From IMG/VR virus record IMGVR_UViG_3300045988_085672: a DNA stretch of 32,417 bases; one strand, given 5' to 3'. The notes below the pieces were generated by a model, which saw nothing but the letters and a program-made list of their open reading frames with translations, made no database searches and was not told the DNA's origin. The stretch is from a virus. Of the stretch, positions 1 to 32,417 are shown piece after piece. Positions within the stretch are counted from its first letter, which is position 1. Each line of letters opens with the position of its first letter. The position numbers and the translations under genes are program-made.

Positions 1-77
1 AGGATCGGTTCAAGCACGTTATCGCAAAGCGAATGTTGAACAACCTTGTCTTTATAGCTGTTCGACATAACCACGCG
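1..77. repeat. Terminal overlap copy A: identical to 32341..32417, indicating circular closure of the contig
   Basis: Read directly. aggatcggttcaagcacgtt...ttcgacataaccacgcg is present at both ends, 77/77 identical. The RT reading frame continues in phase across the join. Confidence 0.95.
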
Positions 78-281
78 GCGCTTCGGCTCGTACACCTCGA
101 ACGTGTTGTACGGCGAAAGCGTGTACTTTTTCGTTTTGAGCTGGTAGCTTAACAGGTTCAGCGCTTCAAGAAGGTTTACTTCAAACTTTGCCGCCGCTCC
201 TTTCCACCTCTTGCCTTGCCGCGCCTTTCGGTAGGCTCTGTATAGGTTCTCGAAGTTATATATCTTCTCGTAATCTGTCAT
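1..281 (-). CDS. DGR reverse transcriptase, N-terminal part; continues at 32417 on the circle, joined product 351 aa
   Basis: ATG at 281 preceded by a GAGGA RBS. My translation is MTDYEKIYNFENLYRAYRKARQGKRWKGAAAKFEVNLLEALNLLSYQLKTKKYTLSPYNTFEVYEPKRRVVMSN..., with no stop down to position 1. It is in phase with ORF 31566..32414 through the 77-bp overlap. Confidence 0.9.
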   Translation of the reverse strand, partial: MTDYEKIYNFENLYRAYRKARQGKRWKGAAAKFEVNLLEALNLLSYQLKTKKYTLSPYNTFEVYEPKRRVVMSNSYKDKVVQHSLCDNVLEPI

Positions 282-448: not shown

Positions 449-550
449 AAGCGGGCGAACGCCCCTGTTCCCGTTGTAAGCGTTGTTGTTGTTCAGCGTG
501 CCATCGGAATTGACGTTGCGGACGTTCTGCGCGTTCGACGAATTAGGCGT
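449..550 (-). repeat. DGR template repeat (TR), 102 nt
   Basis: 94/102 identical to VR1 and 67/78 identical to VR2. Every mismatch is at a plus-strand T, which is an adenine on the sense (minus) strand. I counted 28 sense-strand adenines. The sense frame is Asn(AAC)-rich: SSNAQNVRNVNSDGTLNNNNAYNGNRGVRPL. Confidence 0.93.
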
Positions 551-572: not shown

Positions 573-977
573 TCACCCTCTCGCACGATCCCGCTTTTTC
601 CACGCGGCTAACATATACTTCACGTCAAGCGCAAGTTTAGACCAATATTCGCAACTGTTCGTTGATATGAAGCCCTGTTCGTGCGAAAGCTCTATGAAAA
701 ATAGAAGCTCCTTGCAATAGGTCATTGCCTTCGCTTGAAGCCTCTGCCGTTCCTTGAATTCCTGCGCGTCCAGAAGGTTTAATTCGTTCGCCTCCAGCGC
801 GCATTCGTAAATATCCACCGCTTTATCCTGTATCCTGTTCACAAGGGTAAATCGGTATTTCTTTGGGAAGCGTTCTGTCGAATTTGTGATCGTGAATGTG
901 TGCTTGATTAAATCTTTGCACTTCACGATTACGTTAAATTCCGAAGGTTCCTTTCTTCCTCGTTCCTGCCTCTGCAT
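573..977 (-). CDS. avd: Accessory variability determinant (Avd), four-helix-bundle family
   Basis: 134 aa, basic and helical. The segment FPKKYRFTLVNRIQDKAVDIYECALEAN resembles the Avd / 23S rRNA-IVS four-helix-bundle family. It lies 22 nt upstream of the TR. Confidence 0.75.
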   Translation of the reverse strand: MQRQERGRKEPSEFNVIVKCKDLIKHTFTITNSTERFPKKYRFTLVNRIQDKAVDIYECALEANELNLLDAQEFKERQRLQAKAMTYCKELLFFIELSHEQGFISTNSCEYWSKLALDVKYMLAAWKKRDRARG

Positions 978-15821: not shown

Positions 15822-16220
15822 TCAGCCCTCCGTTTTCTGCCGTAGATAGTCGATAATCACGCTTGCGGCTTCCTGCCAGCCCTTGCAGATTGCCGCCGCG
15901 TATCCCTGTTTCAAAAGCCCGTCGATCCAGCGCACCTGTTCTTCGCTGATCCTCCCGCCGCGCTGTCGTTTAAGCTCAATGTATAGCCCGTGATTTGCCC
16001 CGCGTGCAACCGGAAGGCAAAGATCGGGAACGCCGGATTTCACGCCCTGCGCCCGAAGGCGCGCCGCTTCGATCTTGTTTCGGCTCCCGCCGTTCGGAAC
16101 GTGATATAAAAGCGCCAATTCCGGAAAGCGCCCCGATTGAAGCGTCGCCCACTCGAAAAGCGCGATTTGTTCTTCCGCCTCCGTAGGAACGGGAAGGGTA
16201 AGCGTGCTATTTTTCCGCAT
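15822..16220 (-). CDS. VRR-NUC domain nuclease
   Basis: Start at MRKNSTLTLP.. (ATG 16220). Motifs seen: HVPNGG, GVKSGVPDL, YIELK, Q..W. Confidence 0.8.
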   Translation of the reverse strand: MRKNSTLTLPVPTEAEEQIALFEWATLQSGRFPELALLYHVPNGGSRNKIEAARLRAQGVKSGVPDLCLPVARGANHGLYIELKRQRGGRISEEQVRWIDGLLKQGYAAAICKGWQEAASVIIDYLRQKTEG

Positions 16221-16527
16221 TTTGCTTCGCCTCCCATTCCTCGAAGAAGAAAAACGGCTTTTCCTGCACGAATGCTTCGTCAAACTCGCGTTGCGCGCCT
16301 TTGCTCTCTTTCCAATCCGGAAGGAAGCAGACTTCGGCGCATTCGTCCAGCATTGCGCCCGCCATTCGCATATAGGCTTCCCACGTGAAGCCCTCCGAAG
16401 GCAATAACGCCGGATTGACGACAATAAAGCCGCCTTCCTCCAGCTTCTTCTGCGCTTCATAGAATTTTGAGCGGTAGAACGGATCGCCCGTAATCTTCCC
16501 CGCAAGGTAAACCGTCTTTTTCTGCAT
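16207..16527 (-). CDS. DUF4406 / nucleoside 2-deoxyribosyltransferase-like protein
   Basis: Start at MQKKTVYLAGKITGDP.. with a GGGAGG RBS. The sequence is typical of DUF4406. Confidence 0.6.
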   Translation of the reverse strand: MQKKTVYLAGKITGDPFYRSKFYEAQKKLEEGGFIVVNPALLPSEGFTWEAYMRMAGAMLDECAEVCFLPDWKESKGAQREFDEAFVQEKPFFFFEEWEAKQNAEK

Positions 16528-16544
16528 TGTTTTTCCTCCCTTCG

Positions 16545-17234
16545 TCAAAACAGCGTTGTTTGCGTTGCCTTTTCCTGTTCCTCCAGCAGATCAAACAGGC
16601 GGATTTGCGCTTTCTCTTCTTCAAGCCGCCTGTTCGCCGCCTCGAAATATTTTGCATTGATTTCAAAGCCCACATAATCAAGCCCGCCGATCCGCTGGCA
16701 AGCGACAAGGGAACTTGCGCTTCCGGCGTGCGTGTCTATAATCTTCATACCCTTTCGGGCAAACAGGGATAAAACCCATTCATACAGCTTCACGGGCTTT
16801 TGCGTAGGGTGGATCGTCCCTTCGATCTGCAATTCAACGCGGTTCAACGTGAAAATCCTTGTCGGCGTGTCAAAGCTGGTGTATGCAAGCTCGCAATCGG
16901 ACATTGAAAGCCCGCGTTGCCCCTTGTCCCATATAAGCCAGCCTTTATGCGCCTGTTTCAGCATCGGAACAAAGTAATTCCCGCCCCATATGATTTGATT
17001 TTGTGATACCCGTTCAAGCTCTCTGAAATATTCTTCGGTCGGTGGCTTCTTGTCCCAGCCTTCCCGCGAATGCTCCTTCCTGTTGTGTTTTGGATTAGTG
17101 CAAACGCGCTTTCGCTGTCCGTCAATCCCGATCCCGTAAGGCGGATCGACAATCGCAAGATCGAAGAACCCGTCCGGAAATTCCTTCATTCCCTGCATAC
17201 AATCCAAATTGTAAAGCCTGTTCAATTCAAGCAA
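16545..17234 (-). CDS. DNA methyltransferase, beta class (N6-A or N4-C), DPPY motif
   Basis: 229 aa with a TTG start 9 nt after AGGAGG. Motif IV (IVDPPYGIG) is N-terminal and motif I (IIDTHAGSASS) is C-terminal. Confidence 0.85.
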   Translation of the reverse strand: MLELNRLYNLDCMQGMKEFPDGFFDLAIVDPPYGIGIDGQRKRVCTNPKHNRKEHSREGWDKKPPTEEYFRELERVSQNQIIWGGNYFVPMLKQAHKGWLIWDKGQRGLSMSDCELAYTSFDTPTRIFTLNRVELQIEGTIHPTQKPVKLYEWVLSLFARKGMKIIDTHAGSASSLVACQRIGGLDYVGFEINAKYFEAANRRLEEEKAQIRLFDLLEEQEKATQTTLF

Positions 17235-17375
17235 TGCCGATCGCCTCCTTTCTTTCTTCTCCCACCCCTCCGCCCCTCCCGCTGGGAGGGGAACAGGCTC
17301 AAAGGAATAAACCCAGCGCCCGATCCGTTATGCACATTTCCCCAGCTTTCATTGTGGAAAAGTTGAAGCCGCCTT

Positions 17376-17528
17376 GATAGATTTTCTTTCCCCGTCGCCG
17401 CCCTGCTCCTATCACTCACGGATCACCCCGTAAAGGTCAAGCGGCTTCGCCGTGCTTCGCAACCTTGACGGGCTGAACCGTTCGTGATCTCTGATAAACA
17501 GGCGACGGGGAATAAACGAAAATCTATC
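17376..17528. other. Large nested inverted repeat in a 377-nt non-coding gap (candidate origin or structured RNA)
   Basis: gatagattttc (17376..17386) pairs with gaaaatctatc (17518..17528). ttccccgtcgcc (17388..17399) pairs with ggcgacggggaa (17501..17512). Internal stems are gatcac/gtgatc and gtcaag/cttgac. Confidence 0.6.
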
Positions 17529-17611
17529 TTCAATGCTCCTTCTGTGATCGAAGCTGTGCTTCGTCGCCAAACGTTACACATTTACAAGGCTTTATAAACG
17601 CTGATCCGAAA

Positions 17612-18367
17612 TCAGCTTTTGCCGTCCTTTGCCGCTCGTTTGCGTTTCCGCTTCGGCGGCTCTAACACATACTTAAAATAAAGGTATCCATACTTTGTGC
17701 TTTTCGTTTCTACTAATATATAGCCCTTCGGCGGGCGCGGCGGCTTGCTCTCTGTGTAAATCCTTTTCGCAACGGTTGGCGTTTCCCGTTCCGGCTTCCG
17801 CGCGTTGCGCGTCTGCTTCCAACGGTGTCCGCCCTGCTCCGGTGTCCAATGGTCGAAAAGGTAATTCGCAAGCCCCGTGTAATCCTGTCCGTGATCTACG
17901 CCGTCGTAATAATTGTGTTCGCGTAGATGGTCGATCCGGACGATACTTCCGTAAATCCATTGTTTCTTGATCGCTTCTTCCGGTACGCCGTCCGAAAGCA
18001 TATGCGCGTGAATTCTGTTCGTGTTCTTGCCGCGTCCTAAATAAATAAAGATCACGGCATCGGGGAAAGCGTATTTCAGCCGCCGCACGAATAGATCGCG
18101 TATCCGCTTTGCTTCCTTGAAGGTATGTACTTCGTTTTCGTCGTCCAGCGTCAGCGTGCTATATAATGAACGCGGGGAAAAGTTTTCATTTACCAGCCGC
18201 GCGTGTTTTCTTCTTGATATTCCGATCCGGTGTTGTTCCCGTTTTTCCTCTGTCTTAAATCGCGGGCGCGGTTCGGCTTTCTTTATATCGGTAAGCCTGT
18301 CCGATATGTTGAAAACTTCCTGTTCGCATACAGCGCCCGAAAATATCCTTCTTTTTACTCTCTGCAT
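17612..18367 (-). CDS. HUH-type rolling-circle replication initiator (Rep)
   Basis: 251 aa. Motif I-like YSTLTLD, HUH motif RIHAHML, and Tyr motif DYTGLANYLFDH, in the canonical order. Confidence 0.6.
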   Translation of the reverse strand: MQRVKRRIFSGAVCEQEVFNISDRLTDIKKAEPRPRFKTEEKREQHRIGISRRKHARLVNENFSPRSLYSTLTLDDENEVHTFKEAKRIRDLFVRRLKYAFPDAVIFIYLGRGKNTNRIHAHMLSDGVPEEAIKKQWIYGSIVRIDHLREHNYYDGVDHGQDYTGLANYLFDHWTPEQGGHRWKQTRNARKPERETPTVAKRIYTESKPPRPPKGYILVETKSTKYGYLYFKYVLEPPKRKRKRAAKDGKS

Positions 18368-18384
18368 ACGTCAAGCCACCTTCC

Positions 18385-18413
18385 TTTGACAAGAAGCCGC
18401 CTTCGTGCTATAA
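18385..18413 (+). promoter_or_regulatory. Perfect consensus sigma-70 promoter on the plus strand
   Basis: TTGACA (18385..18390), exactly 17 nt, TATAAT (18408..18413). Confidence 0.75.
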
Positions 18414-18419
18414 TAACAA

Positions 18420-18500
18420 ATGTATTGAATAGCCTTAAACGGCGCACCCCTCAACGGGGAATAACCGTCCTGTACGCCCATACAGGACGGTTCTTTTTTT
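18420..18500 (+). ncRNA. Candidate ~80-nt antisense small RNA (countertranscript upstream of rep)
   Basis: It is bounded by the consensus promoter and a 12-bp-stem, T7 terminator. No ORF is present. It is antisense to the intercistronic leader between gene 18503..18886 and rep. Confidence 0.55.
18463..18500 (+). terminator. Strong rho-independent terminator, plus-strand specific
   Basis: aaccgtcctgta-cgccca-tacaggacggtt followed by cTTTTTTT. On the minus strand the hairpin is followed by attcccc, with no U tract. Confidence 0.8.
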
Positions 18501-18502
18501 GT

Positions 18503-18886
18503 CTATCCGTTGTTAAGCCCTTCGCCCTGCAAGAAATCTTCGCATTTTGTTTCCTCGCAAGGCTTGAAGCGCATTCCGTCCGCGCAACCGATGCACGGGA
18601 AAGGGCGTATCCCGTCCGGCGCGTATCCTTCGCGGATTTTCTCGCATTCCTCCAGCCGCGCGCATTGATCGCACCAGCACTTCCTGCAATCCCCGATTTC
18701 GGTTTTTACCGGATCGCGCTTTAACGGCTCTTCTGTTTCGTGTACCTCTTTAATATCGTTTGCCGCTTCCATCACGTCGTAAGCGTCCACGCCTTCCTTA
18801 AAGCCCCGAAGGAAGGCGGCGAACATAAACCCGATTGCCGCGCCAGCTTCTTCAAGCGTTGCCGCGTCTATCTTGATTTCGTCCAT
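18503..18886 (-). CDS. Cys-rich hypothetical protein
   Basis: 127 aa with a GAGAGGT RBS. The C-terminal half has about 11 Cys (CRKCWCDQCARLEECE..CIGCADG..). Confidence 0.6.
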   Translation of the reverse strand: MDEIKIDAATLEEAGAAIGFMFAAFLRGFKEGVDAYDVMEAANDIKEVHETEEPLKRDPVKTEIGDCRKCWCDQCARLEECEKIREGYAPDGIRPFPCIGCADGMRFKPCEETKCEDFLQGEGLNNG

Positions 18887-19028
18887 TTCCGTTACCTCTC
18901 TTCCTGTCGATCCTGCAAGTGCGGATAATTGCCACGATTACGCAATATACAATCAGCACCGCCACCGCAATACAGGCGATCCCGCAAAGCAGGAAGAAGG
19001 CGTTTTGCATAAATTCAAACATTGTCAT
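18852..19028 (-). CDS. 58-aa single-pass membrane protein (below the ORF-track cutoff)
   Basis: My translation is MTMFEFMQNAFFLLCGIACIAVAVLIVYCVIVAIIRTCRIDRKRGNGNGRNQDRRGNA. A GGAAGG RBS lies in the last codons of DGR target 2, and the ATG is 6 nt after that stop. Confidence 0.5.
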   Translation of the reverse strand: MTMFEFMQNAFFLLCGIACIAVAVLIVYCVIVAIIRTCRIDRKRGNGNGRNQDRRGNA

Positions 19029-19034
19029 ATTGCT

Positions 19035-19658
19035 TTACCTTCCTTCCCCGAAAACCTCTTCTGGCTGAACGTCCCACGCCGCCGCAATATGCTTCATCAT
19101 ATCCACCGCTTCGGCGCGTTTCTTCATATCCCCGTCAAGGTAAGATTTCAAGATTTCAGATTTCAGAACACAAAGCGGGCGAACGCCCCCGTCCCCGTAG
19201 CAAGCGCTGTAGTAGCTCAGCGTGCCACCGGAATAGACGTTGCGGACGTAAGAATTTTTCGGGCTGTCCGGTGTAGCCGTCCACCACCAAGCGTCCGGAA
19301 GCTCCGGAATGTTGCCGCGAAGAAGCCTGTATTCGTCGCACGTGATAAGCCCGACGCGGACGCGATCGCCGCCGTAGTCCTTCAAACCGTCGTCGGCTGT
19401 CAAGTCTATATCGAAATGCTCGAACATTTCTTCCGGCGCGCCCGCTCCGATCAACTTTTGCAGGAATTCGCCGTTCAAGAACGCGCGAATATCAGACGCG
19501 GCGAAATCGTTTCGGTTCTGCGCGTCAAAAGCGCCGTTTCCGATACACTCCGAAGCAATGCACTTCACCCAGCTTTCGGCGGTCTGAATGATTGTGAATG
19601 CGATCCCGCCGATCGTGATTTCCTGTTTCGGCGCGAAGCCGTGTTTGTTCTCTGTCAT
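19035..19658 (-). CDS. DGR target protein 2 (DUF6273-like / C-type-lectin-like variable domain), 207 aa
   Basis: Start at MTENKHGFAPKQ.. (ATG 19658). It contains ..WWWTATPDSPKNSYVRNVYSGGTLSYYSACYGDGGVRPLCVLKSEIL.., which is paralogous to the VR region of target 1. VR2 is embedded at aa ~137..162. Confidence 0.85.
   Translation of the reverse strand: MTENKHGFAPKQEITIGGIAFTIIQTAESWVKCIASECIGNGAFDAQNRNDFAASDIRAFLNGEFLQKLIGAGAPEEMFEHFDIDLTADDGLKDYGGDRVRVGLITCDEYRLLRGNIPELPDAWWWTATPDSPKNSYVRNVYSGGTLSYYSACYGDGGVRPLCVLKSEILKSYLDGDMKKRAEAVDMMKHIAAAWDVQPEEVFGEGR
19173..19250 (-). repeat. DGR variable repeat 2 (VR2), 78 nt
   Basis: It aligns to TR 449..526. There are 11 mismatches, all at TR plus-strand T (sense A). 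Homology stops abruptly after position 78. Confidence 0.9.
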
Positions 19659-19714
19659 ATTGAAAAGCCCCTTTCTTATATATAATAGGTATATCCGCAC
19701 CCGCTCGCGGGCGT

Positions 19715-20047
19715 TTAACACTTCTTGCCGCCGTGTCGATACGGGCGGCTTTTGTTGTATTCGTGCTTCTGCGAAATTGCCGCGTCAATGTCAATTCCCG
19801 CATATCCGCAATAATCAAGAACGCGGATAATCACGTCGGCAAGCTCGATCGGTATTCCTTCCGGCTTCCCGTTGTTTCCGGTGTAAACCTCCGTAGGCAA
19901 GCGCCCGTTGCGGTATTCCTCCAGCGCTTCGGATACCTCCGAATGAATGAGCGCCAGCACTTCGGGAAAGCCGCGTTCTTCGTCCCACCAGCCGTGATCG
20001 ACGGCGTTTTCGTGAATTTGCCTTGCAACCTCGTTAATTCCTGTCAT
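19715..20047 (-). CDS. MazG-like nucleotide pyrophosphohydrolase
   Basis: Start at MTGINEVARQIHENAVDHGWW.. The segments ..LIHSEVSEALEEYR.. and ..ELADVIIRVLD.. give the EExxE and ExxD style motifs. Confidence 0.75.
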   Translation of the reverse strand: MTGINEVARQIHENAVDHGWWDEERGFPEVLALIHSEVSEALEEYRNGRLPTEVYTGNNGKPEGIPIELADVIIRVLDYCGYAGIDIDAAISQKHEYNKSRPYRHGGKKC

Positions 20048-20363
20048 TGTTTGCGCTCCTTTCTTCTCCGCTTTTGTTTTCGTCTGCGTCCTTCTGGCAA
20101 TCGCACGTTTCCCCGTTGTCAAGGTGTGCGCCGCAATGGTCGCATATTTTGTACTTCATTTCTTCGTTACCTCCGTTCTTTGGAATAATCAGACGGCGCA
20201 ATCCGTCCGCGCATAGCGTCAAGCCGTGTTCGTGAAGGTAGGCGCGGCGGCGTTTCGCCTCTGCCGCTTCCCATCCGCAAGTAGGACATTCGGAAGTGTT
20301 GCATTTCTGAACCTCTTTCGGATTGATACCTAAAAGGCAGATATATTTGCTTTTCTCACTCAT
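20034..20363 (-). CDS. Zinc-ribbon hypothetical protein
   Basis: 109 aa with the Cys pairs CPTCGW and CDHCGAHL..CDC. Confidence 0.55.
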   Translation of the reverse strand: MSEKSKYICLLGINPKEVQKCNTSECPTCGWEAAEAKRRRAYLHEHGLTLCADGLRRLIIPKNGGNEEMKYKICDHCGAHLDNGETCDCQKDADENKSGEERSANNDRN

Positions 20364-20810
20364 TTTTCACCCGCTCCCCGTTATAGATAACTACCATAGA
20401 AGGGAAGGGCGCGGGATCGCTGGCGTTCCCGTCGTCGTCCGTGAAGCGAAGCCGCCCGCGAACAAAACGGATTTCCGCTTTCCCGTATATGTAATCGTGA
20501 AAATAGGTCGTATCGGTTCGAGCGGGAATAAGCAGTACAACGGCGTACCCCCCCCGCGTGCTTCTTCGTATGCCTTCTTTACCCACTTTCCGATCTCGCG
20601 TCCGTAAGGCGGATTGCAGAAAACCGCCCCGCCGCGATCCCAGCTTTGCGAAAGCCCGTCCGTTTCCGGCGTATAGTAAAGCGTGCATTTTGCCGTTTTG
20701 TCGGTCGCCGCCGCGTCAAGCACGAAGCCGAATTCTTCGTTCAGACGGTCGAAGAAGTCTTGCGGCGTACACCAATCCATTTTCTTTGAAGATAGAAGCG
20801 CACTATTCAC
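20356..20810 (-). pseudogene. Phage Dam-type N6-adenine DNA methyltransferase interrupted by a frameshift in a G8 tract
   Basis: ORF 20391..20810 gives the N-terminal half (..DWCTPQDFF..VFCNPPYGREIGKWVKKAYEEARGGG). ORF 20356..20688 gives the C-terminal half (YAVVLLIPARTDTTYFHDYIYGKAEIRFVRGRLRF..). The frames switch at ccccCCCC 20548..20555. Confidence 0.8.
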
Positions 20811-21249
20811 CGCCGCCAGCCTCCTTTCCGGAAATCGGTTTTGTTTTCCCGTCTGCGAATGCTTTTAACGCCTTCGCCTTGCTGGTGTATGTTTCCGCCG
20901 TTTCAATCCCGCAGATCGGGCAGTACACGAAGTATTCTTTGTTTTCTTCGTCGGCGTATATAACCGCGTTTTCAACTTCTCCGCCGCAATGTGGGCATTT
21001 TGTCTTTTTTTCTGTGAACCCTCGCTTCTTTTCGGTTTTCGGCGTATCCTCTGTATGTTCGTCGGAAAAGAGGCGTACAACCGCCGCAACCTGTTCAAAG
21101 TCCAGATAAACGGGCTTGTTCTCCGTAATTCCTTCAATGTTGTATCCGGTCGCTTGTCCGAAGCCGTTTTGCTTGATCGTGAACTTGTCGCACTTGATAG
21201 CGAATTCCGAACCGCTCTTCAAGATAACGCGGATCGTCATTTTAGGCAT
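20803..21249 (-). CDS. Lar-like restriction-alleviation zinc-ribbon protein (C-terminal half)
   Basis: Start at MPKMTIRVIL.. The segment ..KCPHCGGEV..YFVYCPICGIETAETYTSKAKALKAFADG resembles the Lar family. Confidence 0.5.
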   Translation of the reverse strand: MPKMTIRVILKSGSEFAIKCDKFTIKQNGFGQATGYNIEGITENKPVYLDFEQVAAVVRLFSDEHTEDTPKTEKKRGFTEKKTKCPHCGGEVENAVIYADEENKEYFVYCPICGIETAETYTSKAKALKAFADGKTKPISGKEAGGGE

Positions 21250-21907
21250 TGTCCGCCACCTCGCTTTCGTCCCCGACGATCTCGCCCGTAGCAGGATCGA
21301 CATTCAAGGAATATTGTTCCGGTTCAGCGGCACGCGCCAGCGCTTTCTCCCGCTCCCGAAGGTCAAGGGAAAGCGCGCATTGCTCCGTAAGCCTCTTCAA
21401 GTTATCGACAAACTGCTGGCTAATTACGTCATACGGCATAATCACCGCTTGAAGCAGGAAGCCCGCTTTCGCTACGATGTAGGGCGTTCCGCCGGGCGTG
21501 ATCCGCTCGTATAGCTCCAGCACGTCTAAAATATCGGATACGGGCGAAAGATAGCGGCTTTCGATGAACACAAGCCCGCGCCGCGTCTGCAACGGCTTCA
21601 AGGTCTTTCCAGAATAGGCGATCGAAATTGCTTCCCGCTCGACAGGCTTTTCGTTCGCGTCTGTGTCCTCGAAGCTGATTTCCGAAGGAATGCCCGCTAC
21701 TTGAACGAACCAATCTTCCCGCTGTTTTTCCGGAACGTCGAAAATTGTCAAAAGGCTTTCTTTGTCCAGCGCCGGAAGCCCTGTTACCGGATAAGCCGCC
21801 GCGCCGTCGCCGATGTATTGAACAACGCCGCCGCCTTCGGTGTACCGCTCATAAATAACGGCGTATTTGTTCTTCTTGCAGATCGCCGCGATATTTTTAA
21901 TCTTCAT
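21242..21907 (-). CDS. Hypothetical protein
   Basis: 221 aa from MKIKNIAAICKKN.. (ATG 21907, GAGGTGG RBS). I recognise no motif. Confidence 0.6.
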   Translation of the reverse strand: MKIKNIAAICKKNKYAVIYERYTEGGGVVQYIGDGAAAYPVTGLPALDKESLLTIFDVPEKQREDWFVQVAGIPSEISFEDTDANEKPVEREAISIAYSGKTLKPLQTRRGLVFIESRYLSPVSDILDVLELYERITPGGTPYIVAKAGFLLQAVIMPYDVISQQFVDNLKRLTEQCALSLDLREREKALARAAEPEQYSLNVDPATGEIVGDESEVADNA

Positions 21908-22151
21908 CTTCCGCCACCTCGCTTTCGTCTGCGTCGTCCCGCTCCGCAATCGGCGAAAGGTCAACGCGGGGAACGCGGATCGCCAGCGCGATTTGACAAC
22001 CGCAACGCGGACAATCAATCGCATTGAAGCGGGTAGGCGGTTTCGTTAAACACTCCGTAAACCCGCGCGGCTCTTCCGCAATGTAGATTTCTTCTTTTGT
22101 CGGCGTTACGCGGTATCCGCATACGCCGCACGTCTTTTTCTTTGTAAACAT
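21897..22151 (-). CDS. Zinc-ribbon hypothetical protein
   Basis: 84 aa with CGVCG and CPRCGC pairs. It has the conserved GGAGGGCTATTCAATATG initiation region. Confidence 0.6.
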   Translation of the reverse strand: MFTKKKTCGVCGYRVTPTKEEIYIAEEPRGFTECLTKPPTRFNAIDCPRCGCQIALAIRVPRVDLSPIAERDDADESEVAEDED

Positions 22152-22172
22152 ATTGAATAGCCCTCCTTTTGT

Positions 22173-22487
22173 CTAATATCTGCCGTAAACCCGAACGACG
22201 GTGAAGGGCTTGTCCGCCTTCGTCGCCGTTACGATCGCCGAAGTCATAAAGGATACGCGCAAGAAATCCCGCGCCGCCCGTTTTGCAAGCCTCCACGTAA
22301 TCATTCGCGCGTTAGGTTCCTGCATTGCGTCGCCGTCCAGCGGATACTCGCAAATAAGAACCGTGTTCCCGAACGGTCGCCGCGCTGGGCGTTCCTTCAT
22401 AAATTCTTTGTTGCCCTCTTTGCACTTCACAATTTCAAGCGCCTTCGGAAACTGCCATCCGCAGTCCTGCTTCTTTTCTTTTGCCAT
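22173..22487 (-). CDS. Hypothetical protein
   Basis: 104 aa with an AAAGGGG RBS. Confidence 0.55.
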   Translation of the reverse strand: MAKEKKQDCGWQFPKALEIVKCKEGNKEFMKERPARRPFGNTVLICEYPLDGDAMQEPNARMITWRLAKRAARDFLRVSFMTSAIVTATKADKPFTVVRVYGRY

Positions 22488-22505
22488 TGTTCGCCGCCCC
22501 TTTCT

Positions 22506-22760
22506 TCAAAGCTGAACTAAATTCAAAACCGCAAGAAGCCGATCCGTAATCTGCTTCCGGCGCAACTGCTTCAATATCGTTTCTTCGTTTGCGTCGTAGT
22601 TTTCTGCAAGCGTTACGAAATACTTCAATTCCGGATTTGCCCTTTGCCGAATCCCAAGACAGAAAAGAAGGTGATCCGTTACTTCCGCTTTGATCGGATA
22701 AACGGCAATTTCTCCCGTGTTCTTGTCGATTTCTCTACAAACGCATATCATTTCGCCCAT
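22506..22760 (-). CDS. Hypothetical protein
   Basis: 84 aa with a GAGAGGGG RBS. Confidence 0.5.
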   Translation of the reverse strand: MGEMICVCREIDKNTGEIAVYPIKAEVTDHLLFCLGIRQRANPELKYFVTLAENYDANEETILKQLRRKQITDRLLAVLNLVQL

Positions 22761-22774
22761 ATCCGCGCCCCTCT

Positions 22775-23353
22775 CTAATCGTTATAGGGATTTTGCAAGC
22801 ACCAATCCCACGTTTCAGCGTCTTTCCAGCCGATCGTGAAATGATTGTTCCGCCCGTCGCCTGTGAAATACAGGTATTCAGCCGGAAGGACGCGCCCGAC
22901 GTTCGTTTCCCCGTCCCGCTCTGCGTGATAGCGGATCAGAACGTCAGCCGCCAGCGTCGCAAGCTCCGGAAGAACGGGATAATCTGTCGAATATCCGGCG
23001 AACTGATACGGCGCTTCTAATACCTCCAGCACGGTATCCGGAAAGCGGGGATCGTCAACGCGGTTCAGCACGCACCAAACGCACGCGGCTTTTTCCATAT
23101 CCGAAGCAATCCCGTGCGCTTCTCCGTAAAGCATCTTTGCAAGCGCTTCAACCTCTGCCGCGTCCGGTATGTAGTCCGTTTCTTCCGTTTCCGGTGCAAG
23201 CGTCAAGATTGGGGAAGGGGATATAAGCGCCGTAGGTTCTCCCGAATACTGTTCCGTTTCCGGTGTCCCGCTCCACGGCATAAATGCGACAAGCGGGATC
23301 GCGACGATTACCATTGAAAGCGCCGCCGCGATCCGTCTTTGTTTCCTCTTCAC
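22775..23353 (-). CDS. SleB-type cell wall hydrolase (Hydrolase_2) with N-terminal signal anchor
   Basis: 192 aa. The TM segment is IAAALSMVIVAIPLVAF. The segment ..LAKMLYGEAHGI..EKAACVWCVLNRVDDPRFPDTVLEVLEAPYQF.. matches the SleB family pattern. Confidence 0.7.
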   Translation of the reverse strand: MKRKQRRIAAALSMVIVAIPLVAFMPWSGTPETEQYSGEPTALISPSPILTLAPETEETDYIPDAAEVEALAKMLYGEAHGIASDMEKAACVWCVLNRVDDPRFPDTVLEVLEAPYQFAGYSTDYPVLPELATLAADVLIRYHAERDGETNVGRVLPAEYLYFTGDGRNNHFTIGWKDAETWDWCLQNPYND

Positions 23354-24670: not shown

Positions 24671-25705
24671 TTACGCGGCGGCAATATGGACGGTGAACAA
24701 GTCGTTTGAAGTCGCATATCCTAAAATTTCGCGGGGATAATTATTGATCCAAGCTTCGACGCGCCGAATATATGCGGCGGTTACTTTCCGGAAGTCCGTT
24801 CCTTTTGGAAGGAACCGCCGTATCATTTTGTTTATATTCTCATTCGTTCCTCTCTCGAATGCGCTGTAAGGGTGGCAATAGTAAGCCTTCGTGCGCTTCC
24901 GATCCTTCCCGTAAACAGAACGTTCAATTCCGGCGCAGTCTGCGAATTCTGATCCATTGTCAAACGTAATGCTTTTGAATATCCTCGAAAATCGTTTCCC
25001 GTAACGCCGTTCCAGCTTGTTCAACGCCGCCACAATGCTTGCGGAAGTCTGATCCGGTATCTTCATAATGATTTCTTGCCGTGTCAACCGTTCCGAAAGC
25101 ACAAACAAGGCTTCCTTTGTCTTTTTCTTTCCGCATACGCAATCGCCTTCCCAATGCCCGAAGGTTTTTCGCTCTCCGATCTCCGGATCGCGTCTTTCTA
25201 TGCTTTCGCCCGCCGACGTGCGGGCGGATTTTTTGCGATCCACCTTGTCGTACTTCCTTTTGCGTTTTCCTTTTTCCGGCAAATTCTCGCGGCTGATCCC
25301 GTAAAATATTCCTTTGTCTATGTAATTATAAATCGTCTTTTCGCTGATCTCTGTTTTGAAGGTCAGCCCCAGCCGTTTAATTTCTCCGACAACGGCGGCG
25401 GGGGAATAACCTTCTTCGCCGATTTTCTTTTCGATAAAGGCGGCTAATTCGTAATCATTCCCGATCTTCAAGTCGCCGCCTTTCGCTTTTAGGTTTTCTT
25501 CATAGCGTTGTTGTGCGATTTCCGGCGAATAGCGTTCTTCCGTCGTTAAGTCGGAATTCAAATGCGTATAGGTTCCTCGCTTGATTTCTCTGTATATAGT
25601 TGTGTTATGGACGTGCAGACGGTCAGCGATCTTGCAGGGCTTCAAGCCCTCTTTCAACGCTTTTTCGATTTTAAGGCGATCTGTCCACGTTAAGTGCTTG
25701 TGCAT
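24671..25705 (-). CDS. IS30-family DDE transposase (possible phage integrase function)
   Basis: 344 aa with an N-terminal HTH (LTWTDRLKIEKAL..IADRLHVHNTTIYREIKRG). The catalytic triad context is HWEGD, FDNGSEF and ERGTNEN. A GGAAGGAGG RBS precedes the ATG. Confidence 0.88.
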   Translation of the reverse strand: MHKHLTWTDRLKIEKALKEGLKPCKIADRLHVHNTTIYREIKRGTYTHLNSDLTTEERYSPEIAQQRYEENLKAKGGDLKIGNDYELAAFIEKKIGEEGYSPAAVVGEIKRLGLTFKTEISEKTIYNYIDKGIFYGISRENLPEKGKRKRKYDKVDRKKSARTSAGESIERRDPEIGERKTFGHWEGDCVCGKKKTKEALFVLSERLTRQEIIMKIPDQTSASIVAALNKLERRYGKRFSRIFKSITFDNGSEFADCAGIERSVYGKDRKRTKAYYCHPYSAFERGTNENINKMIRRFLPKGTDFRKVTAAYIRRVEAWINNYPREILGYATSNDLFTVHIAAA

Positions 25706-25725
25706 TTTTGTTCCTCCTTCCTACG

Positions 25726-25755
25726 AAAGAAAAAGGGCGGCATATCCTGCCGCCC
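25726..25755 (-). terminator. Intrinsic terminator after the RHH-like gene
   Basis: Minus strand reads gggcggca-ggata-tgccgccc (8-bp GC stem) followed by TTTTTC. Confidence 0.65.
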
Positions 25756-25761
25756 TCCGCG

Positions 25762-25944
25762 CTACTTTGCCCGCGCCGCTTCGCAATACGAAGCAATGAA
25801 TTTTTTAATTTCGGTTGTCGGCGTAGTCCCGTTTTCTTTACAAACCTTCTTGAATTCTTCCAGCACCTCCGGACGAAGATCGAGCGGGAAGCGCGCGTAA
25901 TGCTTCCGAATGTGTTTTTCTTGTGCCGAATAATCTTTTCCCAC
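25762..25944 (-). CDS. Small ribbon-helix-helix-like DNA-binding protein (putative)
   Basis: 60 aa with a GTG start 8 nt after GGAGG. RFPLDLRPEVLEEFKKVCKENGTTPTTEIKKFI fits a beta-strand, helix, helix pattern. Confidence 0.4.
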   Translation of the reverse strand: MGKDYSAQEKHIRKHYARFPLDLRPEVLEEFKKVCKENGTTPTTEIKKFIASYCEAARAK

Positions 25945-26000
25945 TGTTATTTCCTCCGTTTGAATTATAAGACGATTGTAACATTTTAAATTCTGCTTTT

Positions 26001-26029
26001 ATTATAATATATACGTGCGTATATGTCAA
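26001..26029 (-). promoter_or_regulatory. Perfect consensus promoter with a palindromic operator in the spacer
   Basis: Minus strand reads TTGACA (26029..26024), 17 nt, TATAAT (26006..26001). The spacer holds the 7-2-7 inverted repeat atatacg-tg-cgtatat. Confidence 0.75.
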
Positions 26030-26059
26030 TGTTTTTTCGGGTATCAAACAAGAAAAAAT

Positions 26060-26099
26060 CGCAAAAAGCAACAGCGGCGGGAATTGCCCCGCCGCTGTT
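26060..26099 (-). terminator. Intrinsic terminator after the XRE gene
   Basis: 12-bp stem aacagcggcggg/cccgccgctgtt overlapping the stop codon. On the minus strand it is followed by GCTTTTTGCGATTTTTT. Confidence 0.7.
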
Positions 26100-26343
26100 A
26101 TTCGTCATTACCTAAAAGCCAATCAACCGAAACGCCCAACACTTTCGCAAATACCTTCAATTCAAAATCTGAAACGAAGCGCGTTCCGATCTCAATTCGG
26201 CTTATGCTGTCCCGCTCCATATTAACGCCCATTGTCTGTATTTTTGCGGCTAAATCTTCTTGCCGTAGCCGCTGGACAACTCGCGCTTCCCGTAATCGGT
26301 CGCCGCAAACATTTTTCTTTCCGTTGTAATCGTATATCTTCAC
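26098..26343 (-). CDS. XRE-family HTH transcriptional regulator (cI/Cro-like)
   Basis: 81 aa. GDRLREARVVQRLRQEDLAAKIQTMGVNMERDSISRIEIG is a classic HTH_3 segment. The GTG start is uncertain. Confidence 0.8.
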   Translation of the reverse strand: MKIYDYNGKKNVCGDRLREARVVQRLRQEDLAAKIQTMGVNMERDSISRIEIGTRFVSDFELKVFAKVLGVSVDWLLGNDE

Positions 26344-26409
26344 AAAGGCACGCCGCCTCCCTTCATTTGTAAATTTTCCGTTTCCGTGTGCTAATATTCC
26401 GCTTTATTC

Positions 26410-26438
26410 TTGATTTTAGCGCACGAGAAGCGTATAAT
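26410..26438 (+). promoter_or_regulatory. Promoter of the plus-strand HIRAN-like gene
   Basis: TTGATT (26410..26415), 17 nt, TATAAT (26433..26438). Confidence 0.6.
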
Positions 26439-26503
26439 TGTGTTAAAGGTAAGAATGGATGAATTCTGCCTTGAAAGTTTACAATTCAAAGGAGGTATTC
26501 ACA

Positions 26504-27100: not shown

Positions 27101-27117
27101 ATCACCAACAAAAAAAG

Positions 27118-27154
27118 CCCCGTGAAGGCGGTTAAGCCCTCACGGGGAATTTTT
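27118..27154. terminator. Bidirectional terminator between convergent genes
   Basis: AAAAAAAG-ccccgtga...tcacgggg-AATTTTT. The stem is 8 bp and there are A/T runs on both sides. Confidence 0.65.
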
Positions 27155-27226
27155 GTATTCGGCGGGATAATTCCCGCCGCCGAAAGCCGCAACGCGGAAA
27201 GGGGAACGCGGGCGGCGCTGTCGGTG

Positions 27227-27859: not shown

Positions 27860-27929
27860 ATTTCCCCCTTCCTATCGCACATGATCGCACGGCGTGCAAT
27901 TCAAAAACGCGCGCGTGCAATCCCGTGTA

Positions 27930-28919: not shown

Positions 28920-28981
28920 TCTTGATACCTCCTAATTGCAAAGGCGGGAACGGCTCATTTATAAACCGTTCCCGCTCTTTT

Positions 28982-29281: not shown

Positions 29282-29284
29282 TGG

Positions 29285-29848
29285 TTATGTCTCCCTTCCT
29301 GTTACTTCTTCCCATTGCCACAAGGAAGGCGTATCGGGCGGATACACGCAATTTGGCATATCCGCTTTTGCAAGATAGACTTTTCCTTTGTAGCTGTAAT
29401 ATTTCCCGTTCTGGACGTTTACGACGATCCCCGCCGTTTCCGGATAGGGGATCGGATCGTCAATCGTTCCCGTGTGTGTAAGCTCCACAAGGCGGTAATA
29501 AGCGAAGGTCGTTTCAACGGGATAGGAAACGGCGTTCGACGTGTGCGCGGCGATAATCTCGTAATATCTCCCGTTATACTTGATGATTTCGCCCACAGTG
29601 TTATAGGCGTGCGCGTCCTCGTATTCCGGATATTCGATAACCTCCGCCGATTGCAGGATCATAGCGTCGGAAATGATGTTCGTTTTTGCCGCGCGATCCT
29701 GTGCGATCTGCGCCTTGAACGACAACGCAAGAAGGGCGGCGGTACTTTCGCCCGCTGTCTTTACTTCTTGTGTTTCTTTCTTTACTTCCTGCAATTCCTT
29801 CTTGATTTCCGCGTTTCCGCCGCCGTCTTTGTTATGTTTCACGCTCAT
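29285..29848 (-). CDS. Putative carbohydrate-binding (CBM5/12-like repeats) protein coupled to DGR target 1
   Basis: 187 aa. The ATG overlaps the target-1 stop (ATGA). It has two aromatic-rich repeats: ..YNTVGEIIKYNGRYYEIIAAH.. and ..KYYSYKGKVYLAKADMP..PSLWQW.. Confidence 0.4.
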   Translation of the reverse strand: MSVKHNKDGGGNAEIKKELQEVKKETQEVKTAGESTAALLALSFKAQIAQDRAAKTNIISDAMILQSAEVIEYPEYEDAHAYNTVGEIIKYNGRYYEIIAAHTSNAVSYPVETTFAYYRLVELTHTGTIDDPIPYPETAGIVVNVQNGKYYSYKGKVYLAKADMPNCVYPPDTPSLWQWEEVTGRET

Positions 29849-31581
29849 TCAAAATTACCTCCGATCCCCGATACCCAGCACGCGGTCAGCGCGTCGCCGC
29901 GCTCCACGGTTACGCGGATATTCAAGCCAAATTGAACCGCCGTGTTGGTTTTGTTCTTGAACACGTGCGCCAGTCCTGCGATAACTGCGTTTGTGCAATC
30001 CTCCCAAATAGGCGCTACGTCGTAAGGATTGTTGCACGCTTCAACCTTAAACGTGCCGCCCGCCGGAATATCCCTGTTTACTTTGATATTGCACCGCGTC
30101 GGCTGTCTGTTTGCCTCCAGCGGCTCCGAAAGGGAAATTACAAAGCTGTTGATCGCCTTTGTGAACGTGAGTGTTCGCGTTGCGCTGTTTCCGGCGCTAT
30201 CGGTCGCGACAATCTCGATCGTGTGCTGGGCGTTTGTCAATCCCGTAAACGTGTTCCCGCTTACGGAAAGGGTAAGCGTTGCGCCCAGCGCGATATTATT
30301 TCGCGTGTTGAACGTGCTTCCGTCGATCTTTTCTACAACGTTTACAACGTCCTTATCCGGATCAGTAACGCTATATTCATAGGTGAAATCCTCTCGCTTC
30401 ACGCCAAGATCAGCGTTCTGCCCGCTGATAACGGGCGGCTGATTGTGAATTACCGCGATCGCTCCGCTTGTCGTGTACGCGGAAGAATTGCCCGCCGTGT
30501 CAACCGCCTTCACGCGGTATTGCAGGGTGTTCCACGCCGTCGATACCATTTCCGAAAATGTGCGCGCGGCGGAACTCTGAACCTGTGTCCACGATCCGCT
30601 GTTTGCGCTCCGCTCGAAAACATAGGTCAGCGCATCGCCGTCCGGATCGGTCGCCGCCGCGCAAGAAATTTCGATATTCTGCCCGCTGTAACATTGTTTC
30701 GGCGCTGTAATGCTGGGTGGCGCGGAAGGCGCGGCGTTGTAGATGATTTCATAATTCCCGCTTGAATTCGGATTGTCAGATACCAAGATTGAAGATTTCA
30801 GATTACAAAGCGGGCGAACGCCCCTGCTCCCGTTGTAAGCGCTGATGTAGTTCAGCGTGCCATCGGAATTGACGTAGCGGACGTACTGCGCGCTCGACGA
30901 ATGAGGCGTGCGAAGCCACCAATACCAGCCCTTTGAAGTTGTAAAATTGCTGTTTGTGTATTCCGAATTGCTTACGCATTCCGGCGTAGGATAGGCGACG
31001 CGGGAAGCGTCGTTGCTGAATAGGGCAAGGCGTGTGCCTTCTGCGATCCCGTTTTCGTTTGCAAGCCCCACTTCGGTGGTAGATGCAAGAAACATTTTCG
31101 CCGTGAAGGTTTCATAACTTCCGCCGTCCGTCGAAGATTTTACGACGGTAAGCGTTGTGTTCATAAGCTCCGCAACGAATTTCGGATCAAGCATAGCAAG
31201 GAAGCCCGCCCAAGCGTCGTATTCGTTGTAGTTGTCCCATACGTTCGCATTCGTCGGCGGCGCGTCCTGTCCGTGCTTTGCGCTGTACCATTTGCCCGCC
31301 GCCGCGTTGCTGTTCAGCCATTGCAAAATGTTTGAATGAATATGCCTGTTGTTGCCGTAATTCTTCCGGTCGCTGTTGCTGTTGCTCGGTTCCTTTGCGT
31401 CCGAACACATAAGCTGGATAATCTTTTCGGCGATCAGCGTAACGGAATTCGCCGGATACCCGCTATGGTTCTTGTCCGCAATCTTGAATACGATCTTCGC
31501 ACCGAAGCGCGATTGATACGCCGGAAGAACCGGAACTTCGATTTTTGTTCCCACGGCAAGGGAACTTAATGCTTTTGACAT
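29845..31581 (-). CDS. DGR target protein 1: tail-fibre/receptor-binding-like protein with an N-terminal DUF6273-like variable domain and C-terminal FN3/Ig-like domains
   Basis: 578 aa from MSKALSSLAVGTKIEV.. (ATG 31581, AGGAGG RBS 7 nt upstream). It overlaps the RT stop by 16 nt. VR1 lies at aa ~225..258 (..WYWWLRTPHSSSAQYVRYVNSDGTLNYISAYNGSRGVRPL..). About 320 aa of beta-rich repeats follow. Confidence 0.85.
   Translation of the reverse strand: MSKALSSLAVGTKIEVPVLPAYQSRFGAKIVFKIADKNHSGYPANSVTLIAEKIIQLMCSDAKEPSNSNSDRKNYGNNRHIHSNILQWLNSNAAAGKWYSAKHGQDAPPTNANVWDNYNEYDAWAGFLAMLDPKFVAELMNTTLTVVKSSTDGGSYETFTAKMFLASTTEVGLANENGIAEGTRLALFSNDASRVAYPTPECVSNSEYTNSNFTTSKGWYWWLRTPHSSSAQYVRYVNSDGTLNYISAYNGSRGVRPLCNLKSSILVSDNPNSSGNYEIIYNAAPSAPPSITAPKQCYSGQNIEISCAAATDPDGDALTYVFERSANSGSWTQVQSSAARTFSEMVSTAWNTLQYRVKAVDTAGNSSAYTTSGAIAVIHNQPPVISGQNADLGVKREDFTYEYSVTDPDKDVVNVVEKIDGSTFNTRNNIALGATLTLSVSGNTFTGLTNAQHTIEIVATDSAGNSATRTLTFTKAINSFVISLSEPLEANRQPTRCNIKVNRDIPAGGTFKVEACNNPYDVAPIWEDCTNAVIAGLAHVFKNKTNTAVQFGLNIRVTVERGDALTACWVSGIGGNFE
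30808..30909 (-). repeat. DGR variable repeat 1 (VR1), 102 nt
   Basis: It aligns to the full TR 449..550. There are 8 mismatches, all at TR plus-strand T (sense A). Confidence 0.93.
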
Positions 31582-32417
31582 TTTTCCGCCTCCTTTGAAT
31601 TGAAAAGCCTGTTGTAATAGTGATCCGTTCGCCGGATCAAGTGATAACAATTTCCCTTTGCGGCGTGTCCCCGCCAGCTTTTGTAAGATTGTTCGACGGT
31701 CGCCGTTATGATTTTGCCCCGCTCCACAAGTCCGCGCATTTTCTTCAATTTGCGCTTCATATTGTTCTTGCTTCTGCGGCGCACCTTCCGGATTACCGCG
31801 CCCGTTTCGGTCAAGTAAGTGTGAAATCCCAAGAAATCCACCCCGTTCCGAAGCGGGTAAATGTTCGTTTTGTTGTTCAAGGACAAGCCGATCGCGGCAA
31901 CGTGTTTTTCGATCTCCGCGCGGCAATACTGCAAATAGGCTTTATCTTCGTGTATCAAGAAGAAATCGTCCATATATCTTCCGTAGTATTTAATGCCAAG
32001 CTTTTCCTTGATGAAGTGATCTAAATTATTGAGGTAAAGAAGGGCGAAAAGCTGTGAAGATTGATTGCCGATCGGAATTCCGACGTTCCCTTCTGTGCTG
32101 TCGATTATCATTTCGACAAGCCACAAAACGTCCGGATCGGTTATCTTCCTGCGGATTAAGGTTTTTAACACGTCGTGCCTAATGGAATAGAAGTATTTTG
32201 ATATATCACCCTTCAATATCCACCCGTCAATCCCGTTTTTACGGTAAAACCTCCGCAAGAATTCTTGAAGCCTGTCTAACCCGTAATGCGTACCTTTGCC
32301 CACTTGCGAAGCGTAGTTATCCGTTATGAACGATCTTGTAAGGATCGGTTCAAGCACGTTATCGCAAAGCGAATGTTGAACAACCTTGTCTTTATAGCTG
32401 TTCGACATAACCACGCG
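31566..32417 (-). CDS. DGR reverse transcriptase, C-terminal part (continues from 1..281 on the circle)
   Basis: The motif IGNQSSQ is the DGR-clade [I/L/V]GxxxSQ signature. The catalytic box is YMDD (RYMDDFFLIHED). The C-terminal segment ..SYKSWRGHAAKGN.. is also present. Confidence 0.92.
   Translation of the reverse strand, partial: RVVMSNSYKDKVVQHSLCDNVLEPILTRSFITDNYASQVGKGTHYGLDRLQEFLRRFYRKNGIDGWILKGDISKYFYSIRHDVLKTLIRRKITDPDVLWLVEMIIDSTEGNVGIPIGNQSSQLFALLYLNNLDHFIKEKLGIKYYGRYMDDFFLIHEDKAYLQYCRAEIEKHVAAIGLSLNNKTNIYPLRNGVDFLGFHTYLTETGAVIRKVRRRSKNNMKRKLKKMRGLVERGKIITATVEQSYKSWRGHAAKGNCYHLIRRTDHYYNRLFNSKEAEKCQKH
32341..32417. repeat. Terminal overlap copy B (identical to 1..77)
   Basis: Read directly, 77/77 identical. 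Confidence 0.95.

Follow-up and report, generated by a model that had tools for sequence, protein, structure and literature searches.

A complete phage genome in an IMG/VR virus record (IMGVR_UViG_3300045988_085672; 32,417 nucleotides (nt), hereafter the window) carries a diversity-generating retroelement (DGR) whose single template repeat (TR) is matched by two variable repeats, VR1 in a large 'tentaclin' (target 1) and the shorter, remote VR2 in a protein of 207 amino acids (aa; target 2). Our analysis indicates that VR2, which lies in a tgt2-type protein, is very probably a real second homing site that this one DGR still diversifies. DGRs are, to our knowledge, the only natural systems of targeted protein hypermutation outside adaptive immunity, and the phage DGRs that we know of are understood solely as tools for retargeting tail fibres. 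The genome is circularly permuted and 32,340 bp long, with positions 1-77 repeated at 32341-32417, and its minus strand carries nearly all genes. In the direction of transcription, tail genes are followed by a bAvd-like gene, the TR, the reverse transcriptase (RT), target 1 with VR1, lysis genes, an IS30-like transposase and an early region that ends at HNH and terminase genes.

A sequence-only reading of the same DNA had described VR2 as a 78-nt copy of TR 449-526 with every mismatch at an adenine, and our alignment agrees. The 11 mismatches (TR 526, 511, 504, 492, 490, 487, 483, 477, 475, 469 and 466) fall at adenines in 11/11 cases; adenines make up 22/78 nt of this segment, and the chance that 11 randomly placed mismatches would all land on them is 9e-8. 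The mismatch at 526/19250 sits on the homology boundary, such that the VR2 count is 10 or 11. Past TR 526/527 the similarity collapses (gcag followed by AACG in the TR, ttct followed by TACG in VR2). For VR1, the adenine-only mismatch pattern has a chance probability of P = 1.4e-5. The separation of TR and VR2 along transcription, given as 13.5 kb, is correct when read around the circle, and the results below support the proposal that the one TR has in VR2 a further homing target, shorter than the first and far away.

We scanned viral contigs for the pattern of the GC-rich element at the repeat 3′ end, which yielded 118 loci with TRs, VR1s and VR2s. When the 29 VR2s free of insertions and deletions were compared with their best-fitting TRs, differences occurred at 286/579 TR adenine sites (49%) and at 14/1625 other sites (0.9%). 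Entropy among the 17 VR2s that share the TR of the closest annotated relative, nd12 (OR777946.1), was 1.42 bits at adenine sites, 0.012 at non-adenine sites and 0.04 in the flanks. Within the VR2 segment the TRs of the window phage and nd12 disagree at nine sites, and at 9/9 of these each VR2 has the base found in the TR of its own genome. Outside the VR, target 2 is under purifying selection, with a median ratio of nonsynonymous to synonymous substitution rates (dN/dS) of 0.23, and of 0.11 against a close relative, L104.

The sequence-only reading had allowed that VR2 might be a fossil target; these population data on relatives instead show active diversification. On the fossil view, VR2 would date from an old homing event, or be what is left of a paralogue of the tentaclin lectin domain, and its diversification would be over. 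This view could draw on the short length of VR2 relative to VR1, on its distance of 13.5 kb from the cassette, on its frameshift in L104 and on the presence in another relative, L025, of a second paralogue with a decayed VR and initiation of mutagenic homing (IMH) element. Such a history is difficult to reconcile with non-adenine positions that track the cognate TR in different phages, with variation confined to TR adenines across the 29 VR2s, or with an IMH-like flank that is intact and conserved beside VR2; the same pattern is reported for 13 nd12-like and 39 nd4-like genomes (Baykov et al., PMC10743442). The adenine-specific population pattern and the 9/9 tracking of cognate TRs led us to reject the fossil explanation, to which we assign a very small residual probability. 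The pattern likewise led us to reject ordinary recombination or gene conversion between the DUF6273 paralogues (targets 1 and 2) without any retrohoming, because gene conversion cannot confine differences to sites at which a third sequence has adenine. Within one genome, moreover, VR1 and VR2 differ from each other at adenine sites and both match the TR elsewhere. In favour of this reading, the sequence shared by VR1 and VR2 extends past the TR homology, one contig (L100) has a chimeric target-1/target-2 gene and near-identical genomes have exchanged the whole target-2 gene, but we regard the probability that gene conversion accounts for the TR-VR2 similarity as negligible.

Features at the 3′ side of the repeats are consistent with an active homing site. 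The sequence GGGGCGTTCGCCCGCTT is present in the TR, VR1 and VR2 alike, and a three-way comparison showed that the 30 nt past it, beginning TGTnnTCTGAAATCTnnAATCTTG, are common to VR1 and VR2 only and are not in the TR. This IMH-like flank is kept beside VR1 and VR2 in nd12 and nd4 and in more than 100 metagenomic VRs and, judged from the aligned repeats, looks like the arrangement expected for IMH versus IMH*. The VR2 of nd12, a phage with the same three repeats, is truncated at the same point as that of the window and has 13 mismatches, all at adenines; the VR2 of nd4 is 77 nt long, with 9/10 mismatches at adenines, the same truncation point and the shared 3′ flank. In one locus (L066) the TR homology reaches 6 nt further 5′ than in other VR2s, which fits a 5′ junction set by available homology. 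The IMH-like element, the common truncation point and the L066 extension thus bear out the earlier suggestion that the 3′ boundary is fixed and that the 5′ boundary depends on homology.

By analogy with the BPP-1 paradigm, the sequence signatures observed here suggest a homing mechanism in which the RT, with bAvd, would reverse-transcribe TR RNA (449-550) and misincorporate opposite adenines. The complementary DNA would then replace a VR wherever the 3′ end has the shared GC-rich element and the VR-specific IMH-like flank. With the homology of target 2 to the TR ending after 78 nt, only TR 449-526 would be transferred. Three points weigh against an active VR2 in this phage. No hairpin or cruciform of the BPP-1 type was found downstream of VR1, VR2 or the TR: DNA folding of 81 nt around the VR ends gave z-scores of -0.27, 0.08 and 1.0, and the sole palindrome is a 5-bp GGGCG/CGCCC inside the GC element. 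Such a downstream structure is not universal among DGRs. For the window's own population, activity of VR2 would be an extrapolation from its relatives, and target 2 may be dispensable, given the frameshifted VR2 of L104.

Three relatives show further variation at target 2. L104 is 98.75% identical to window positions 15985-22796, and 66/85 differences lie within the target-2 gene (19000-19700), a clustering which indicates that recombination has replaced the entire gene, the rest of the genome being nearly identical. The part of L104 target 2 that precedes the VR differs from the window with proportions of synonymous (pS) and nonsynonymous (pN) differences of 0.34 and 0.038, and the frameshift in its VR2 is a 1-nt deletion. 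In L025, target 2 is present as two paralogues (locus coordinates 4776-4174 and 1528-923) with a distance of about 3 kb between them; the VR of one matches the TR, and the other has non-adenine changes in both the VR and the GC/IMH element and looks decayed. The chimera in L100 (3056-3967) is joined at the VR, pairing the N-terminal lectin domain of target 1 with the C-terminal tail of target 2; the RT immediately precedes it, and after it come the 58-aa membrane protein and the replication initiator. It represents either an 11.6-kb deletion by recombination between VR1 and VR2 or an assembly artefact across the repeat.

We analysed the target 2 protein by profile, structure and family comparisons. 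It is the orthologue of nd12_tgt2 (73.6% identity over 99% of the query by tblastn), and it matches the end of the Pfam DUF6273 profile at residues 123-167 (9.5e-10) and phrog_9958, a family with no known function, at residues 4-188 (1.2e-41). The VR lies at the C-terminal end of its single DUF6273 domain, and the variable loop reads NSYVRNVYSGGTLSYYSACYGDGGVRPL. AlphaFold2 produced low-confidence models with predicted local distance difference test (pLDDT) scores of 49.7 from a 32-sequence alignment and 54.0 from a 41-sequence alignment that added the MazG-fusion clade described below and the tentaclin domain; the available homologues are hypervariable 90% clusters, mutually too similar for a deep alignment. 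Both models place helices at residues 167-203, again at low confidence. When the higher-scoring model was run against the PDB with Foldseek, nothing was returned below E = 0.98. In a profile search of the PDB the sole sequence relative was 9qa6, the DUF6273 N-terminal domain of an IgA protease (E = 0.004; structure in PMC12402451), and Mtd was not among the matches of the family profile. The 207-aa protein contains no beta-prism, beta-sandwich or immunoglobulin (Ig) anchor domain.

Family members are numerous: the protein database holds 1,048 close homologues, and an exhaustive profile search gave 3,597 clusters at 50% identity, mostly of 180-300 aa. Among 150 best or diverse representatives, the only fused domains were DUF3310, MazG or MazG-like, DUF7768, DUF3846 and tentaclin Ig domains; no tail or capsid domain was fused to DUF6273 in this set, and a crude hydropathy test of the same proteins found no signal-like or transmembrane segment. 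VR2 residues are enriched in Tyr, Ser and Asp. A Cys beside a conserved Cys is tolerated in 7/30 VR2s, a pair read as a disulfide by Baykov et al. (PMC10743442). In nd12 and many relatives (L001 31285-32178; P0007, P0017 and P0118) no stop separates target 2 from a DUF3310 segment in the same frame, and the open reading frames (ORFs) called there are about 290-355 aa long. These may be read-through ORF calls, because the ribosome-binding site and ATG of the 207-aa form are still conserved.

The surroundings of target 2 comprise a MazG-like gene, methyltransferases and a replication initiator, in keeping with its earlier placement among early genes. Across about 40 window- or nd12-like loci, which include prophages in Oscillospiraceae isolates (Neglectibacter, Oscillibacter and Hominicoprocola), the order is MazG-like gene, DUF3310 gene (in some), target 2, 58-aa membrane protein, 127-aa Cys-rich protein and replication initiator. 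The adjacency of the MazG-like gene and target 2 is kept in about 40 loci. The 58-aa membrane protein, which the sequence-only reading had singled out as a neighbour, is 52% identical in nd12 and is likewise conserved downstream of target 2 in about 40 related loci. The 207-aa ORF, its loop sequence and the 58-aa ORF beginning 6 nt after the stop are all as that reading gave them, and GGAAGG lies in the last codons of target 2, where it had placed the ribosome-binding site. The membrane protein is probably translationally coupled to target 2.

A new observation is that the small DUF6273 gene lies in a replication/DNA-metabolism module in five divergent phage groups (window/nd12, nd4, Toutatis, L048/L005-type and L070-type) whose virion modules differ. 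In the L048, L005, L006 and L031 types (37-44% identity) it is followed by a phrog_3584 replication initiator, in nd4 it adjoins a DnaQ-like exonuclease and a cytosine methyltransferase, and in Toutatis it stands among methyltransferases and a replication initiator. A two-pass membrane protein of about 103 aa overlaps the start of the small DUF6273 gene in L048 (2965-3276) and also in L005, L006, L031, L038 and L050. It has no detectable relation to the 58-aa membrane protein of the window, indicating that a small membrane partner recurs in two divergent groups.

Also new is the fusion of a sister clade to MazG, with a MazG-like gene directly upstream of target 2 in the window. In the L070-type clade a DUF6273 domain with 33% identity to target 2 residues 30-207, through the tail, is fused to a MazG NTP-pyrophosphohydrolase; the fusion protein has 282 aa (L070 7533-8381, IMGVR_UViG_3300006256_000321; also P0121-P0240). 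With 476 database hits these fusions form a stable, widespread family, and their VR-equivalent loop is not hypervariable. A literature search found no paper naming both MazG and DUF6273. A candidate MazG-like protein in Toutatis, gp25, encoded directly downstream of the small DUF6273 gene, was unconfirmed by Pfam, PHROGs and BLASTP, which limits the MazG link to the window/nd12 and L070-type groups.

A scan for promoters and terminators around target 2 showed no enrichment and no clear promoter of its own, after which we dropped the reading of target 2 as a 'moron'. A gap of 135 nt, with 90-98% conservation among window-like relatives, separates the Cys-rich gene from the replication initiator; it holds a perfect sigma-70 promoter on the plus strand (18386-18414; TTGACA, 17 nt with TG, TATAAT) followed by a terminator of a 12-bp hairpin and T-run (18463-18492, plus strand). 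The predicted RNA is about 80 nt long; neither this promoter-terminator interval (18386-18492) nor the window as a whole gave an Rfam match.

For the protein itself, we propose that target 2 would be a single DUF6273/C-lectin-like binding domain with a C-terminal hypervariable loop and a short helical tail, whose specificity the DGR would keep adjustable alongside that of the virion tentaclin. Gene context and domain content tilt us slightly towards a role outside the virion; an intracellular role is a more tentative proposition. A protein that works with early genes is favoured because of its conserved position among replication and nucleotide genes, its adjacency and fusion to MazG, and the lack of a virion-anchoring domain. 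The small membrane-protein neighbour in two divergent groups, and fusion partners that include no tail or capsid domain among 150 representatives, count for a non-virion role as well. It is plausible, although we stop short of calling it probable, that target 2 is no tail-fibre-like virion component and serves instead as an accessory ligand-binding protein of the replication/nucleotide-metabolism module, acting with the MazG-like enzyme and/or the membrane protein in phage-host conflict. In a more specific and rather unlikely version, target 2 would be an early-expressed, intracellular or membrane-associated hypervariable 'intrabody', retuned by the DGR against variable host factors such as defence proteins and acting with the MazG-like and/or membrane protein. 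The DUF6273-MazG fusions would then be a fixed-specificity version of the same device.

Several considerations count against these proposals. Gene position and domain fusions are circumstantial, one TR feeds both target 2 and the virion tentaclin, and a disulfide would be in keeping with a location outside the cell. Experiments have characterized a single phage DGR target, Mtd of BPP-1, and it binds receptors as part of the virion (PMC10743442; bioRxiv 10.1101/2024.10.15.618418). On the structural side, the AlphaFold2 models are of low confidence, and the predicted C-lectin fold with a surface VR hairpin derives from the Pfam match and the published nd12_tgt2 models.

Baykov et al. 2023 (PMC10743442) and Egorov et al. 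2024 (bioRxiv 10.1101/2024.10.15.618418) hypothesized that the small target binds receptors on the virion. Target 2 would accordingly resemble Mtd, be encoded away from the tail genes and dock by its terminal helices. Yet in all five divergent groups, whose structural modules are not the same, the gene is always found with replication and DNA-metabolism genes. The protein has no beta-prism, beta-sandwich or Ig anchor and its family profile no Mtd match in the PDB, and the family shows a sister clade fused to the cytoplasmic enzyme MazG and no tail or capsid domain fused among 150 representatives. We therefore consider a virion-borne receptor-binding protein possible but not the likely outcome, while recognizing that the one studied phage target of the C-lectin type binds a receptor (PMC10743442; bioRxiv 10.1101/2024.10.15.618418), that the TR, and hence loop chemistry, is shared with the tentaclin, that VR2 residues are rich in Tyr, Ser and Asp as in binding sites, and that a Cys is tolerated beside the conserved Cys. 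A missing signal peptide is also compatible with virion assembly in the cytoplasm. The sequence-only reading had taken the absence of a signal peptide and transmembrane segment to mean a cytoplasmic protein with no receptor-binding role, which does not follow: virion proteins, including Mtd, are made in the cytoplasm without signal peptides, and the argument carries no weight either way.

Table 1. Positions of the two DGR targets, the DGR cassette and neighbouring genes in the window.
Feature	Position	Strand	Remarks
VR2, second variable repeat	19173..19250	-	ungapped 78-nt match to TR 449-526
IMH-like 3′ flank of VR2 (TGTGTTCTGAAATCTGAAATCTTGAAATCT)	19143..19172	-	in VR1 too, absent from TR
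Target 2	19035..19658	-	207 aa; small DUF6273 (C-type-lectin-like) protein with C-terminal helical tail
MazG-like NTP pyrophosphatase gene	19715..20122	-	phrog_3301 'pyrophosphatase', 1.7e-39; immediately upstream of target 2
58-aa single-pass membrane protein	18852..19028	-	start 6 nt after target-2 stop
127-aa Cys-rich protein	18503..18886	-	62% identical in nd12; conserved in block
Replication initiation protein	17612..18367	-	phrog_3584, 1.5e-39; downstream end of block
TR (template repeat)	449..550	-	adenine-rich copy between avd and RT; only 449-526 copied into VR2
bAvd-like accessory variability determinant	573..977	-	134-aa ORF directly upstream of TR
DGR RT, N-terminal part	1..281	-	ATG at 281
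DGR RT, C-terminal part	31566..32340	-	ORF crosses circular junction
Target 1 'tentaclin'	29845..31572	-	N-terminal DUF6273 domain and Ig-like domains
VR1 in target 1	30808..30909	-	102 nt against TR; 8 mismatches, 8/8 at TR adenines
Amidase-SPOR endolysin (one of the lysis genes)	27930-28919

The cassette itself has an RT and a bAvd-like ORF (Table 1). The RT is a 351-aa ORF rebuilt across the junction, directly downstream of the TR, with an RVT_1 match of 1e-14; its motifs IGNQSSQ at aa 184 and YMDD at aa 216 conform to the DGR-clade pattern of [I/L/V]GxxxSQ and YxDD. The bAvd-like ORF matches Pfam bAvd with E = 6.6e-7 and 30.2 bits, under the 40-bit gathering cut-off, and its size and position fit. 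Target 1, of a type described as tentaclin (PMC10743442), matches the full Pfam DUF6273 domain (2.2e-34), Big_13 and the 'Hoc-like' phrog_10993 (1e-196). Another contig, L012, is 99.5% identical to window positions 24900-31272, with 12/17 substitutions falling within VR1 (30833-30903); this comparison shows that target 1 was diversified very recently within what is essentially one phage genotype.

Elsewhere in the window, an IS30-type DDE transposase (24671-25705, minus strand; phrog_4646 8e-134, HTH_38 and rve) is the sole integrase-like gene. Integration may proceed by this enzyme and not by a tyrosine or serine recombinase; related prophages are known in Oscillospiraceae isolates. The 976-aa ORF at 4122-7052 is the tape-measure gene by size and position. 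It contains diverged tandem repeats at 4590-5785 (minus strand) with a period of 132 nt (for example 5271-5402 and 5403-5534) and sub-repeats of 33 and 66 nt.

A conserved, actively diversified second target thus recurs in several unrelated gut-phage lineages, always in the replication module, and three papers list the small second target as 'function unknown' (PMC10743442; bioRxiv 10.1101/2024.10.15.618418; PMC11792537). If target 2 has an intracellular action, counter-defence or host takeover would be added to the uses of phage DGRs; if it is an 'intrabody', one retroelement would diversify an extracellular and an intracellular weapon in parallel. The window lineage has prophages in cultured Oscillospiraceae, which makes the question of its role directly testable. 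The window itself adds no new principle, as the DGR layout is already published, and the sequence-only reading overstated how unusual it is: two-target systems have been reported (PMC10743442; bioRxiv 10.1101/2024.10.15.618418; PMC11792537), and a distal non-structural target has been proposed (PMC8008677).

The closest counterparts are the two-target DGRs of the gut phages nd12 and nd4, for which the shorter VR2 and the C-lectin fold of nd12_tgt2 were described by Baykov et al. 2023 (Int J Mol Sci 24:17324, PMC10743442); early-module position, IMH and MazG link are not discussed there. Both share with the window the cassette order avd-TR-RT-target 1 (tentaclin), a small DUF6273 target 2 that is remote and whose VR2 is the shorter repeat, and the ends of TR and VR. 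In nd12 the flanking block of MazG-like gene, target 2, small membrane protein, Cys-rich protein and replication initiator is also the same, whereas nd4 is an unrelated myovirus with the same two-target architecture. The window nevertheless represents a lineage distinct from nd12, with about 77% nucleotide identity over 53% of the queried half. The annotation of nd12 gives target 2 as an ORF of 297 aa (Baykov et al. give 294 aa), in frame from the DUF3310 segment; in the window a stop and a spacer of 56 nt precede target 2, which stands alone as a 207-aa ORF.

More distant examples come from Faecalibacterium phages. In FP_Toutatis a core gene carries the second VR, at a distance of 17,480 nt from the TR (Egorov et al. 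2024, bioRxiv 10.1101/2024.10.15.618418), and the Faecalibacterium prophages Lelie and CP11 are of the same two-target type (2024; PMC11792537). Like the window, these phages have a large target that is Hoc-like or tentaclin and a small DUF6273 protein that contains the second VR, here about 17 kb away from the TR; in contrast, the small target is only about 33% identical to the window protein and has other neighbours. Toutatis gp23, directly upstream of the small target, belongs to phrog_24518, a family also found in the early region of the window (21242-22024). The DUF6273-MazG fusions, from uncultivated Caudoviricetes and annotated as 'NTP-PPase-like protein', resemble target 2 in their 33% identity and early/replication neighbourhood, but differ in their C-terminal MazG domain and non-hypervariable loop and are, as far as seen, no DGR targets.

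With BPP-1 the window shares adenine-specific transfer from TR to VR, a GC-rich element plus an IMH (here IMH-like) at the VR 3′ end that differs in the TR, a candidate Avd (here bAvd-like) and a VR in a domain of C-lectin type (Mtd in BPP-1, predicted in the window). BPP-1, however, has a single target in the tail module rather than two, and Mtd has an N-terminal beta-prism and beta-sandwich; target 2 lacks both, and its gene lies between a MazG-like gene and a replication initiator. Quimbyvirus belongs to another phage family, infects Bacteroides and carries its distal target on the opposite strand, and we liken this target to target 2 by layout, not homology. Benler et al. 2021 (PMC8008677) argued that this distal second target is non-structural and is surrounded by genes for defence and counter-defence. 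In Quimbyvirus as in the window, one RT and TR serve a target in the structural module and a remote C-lectin target beside methyltransferases, an arrangement read in Quimbyvirus as pointing to a role in phage-host conflict (PMC8008677).

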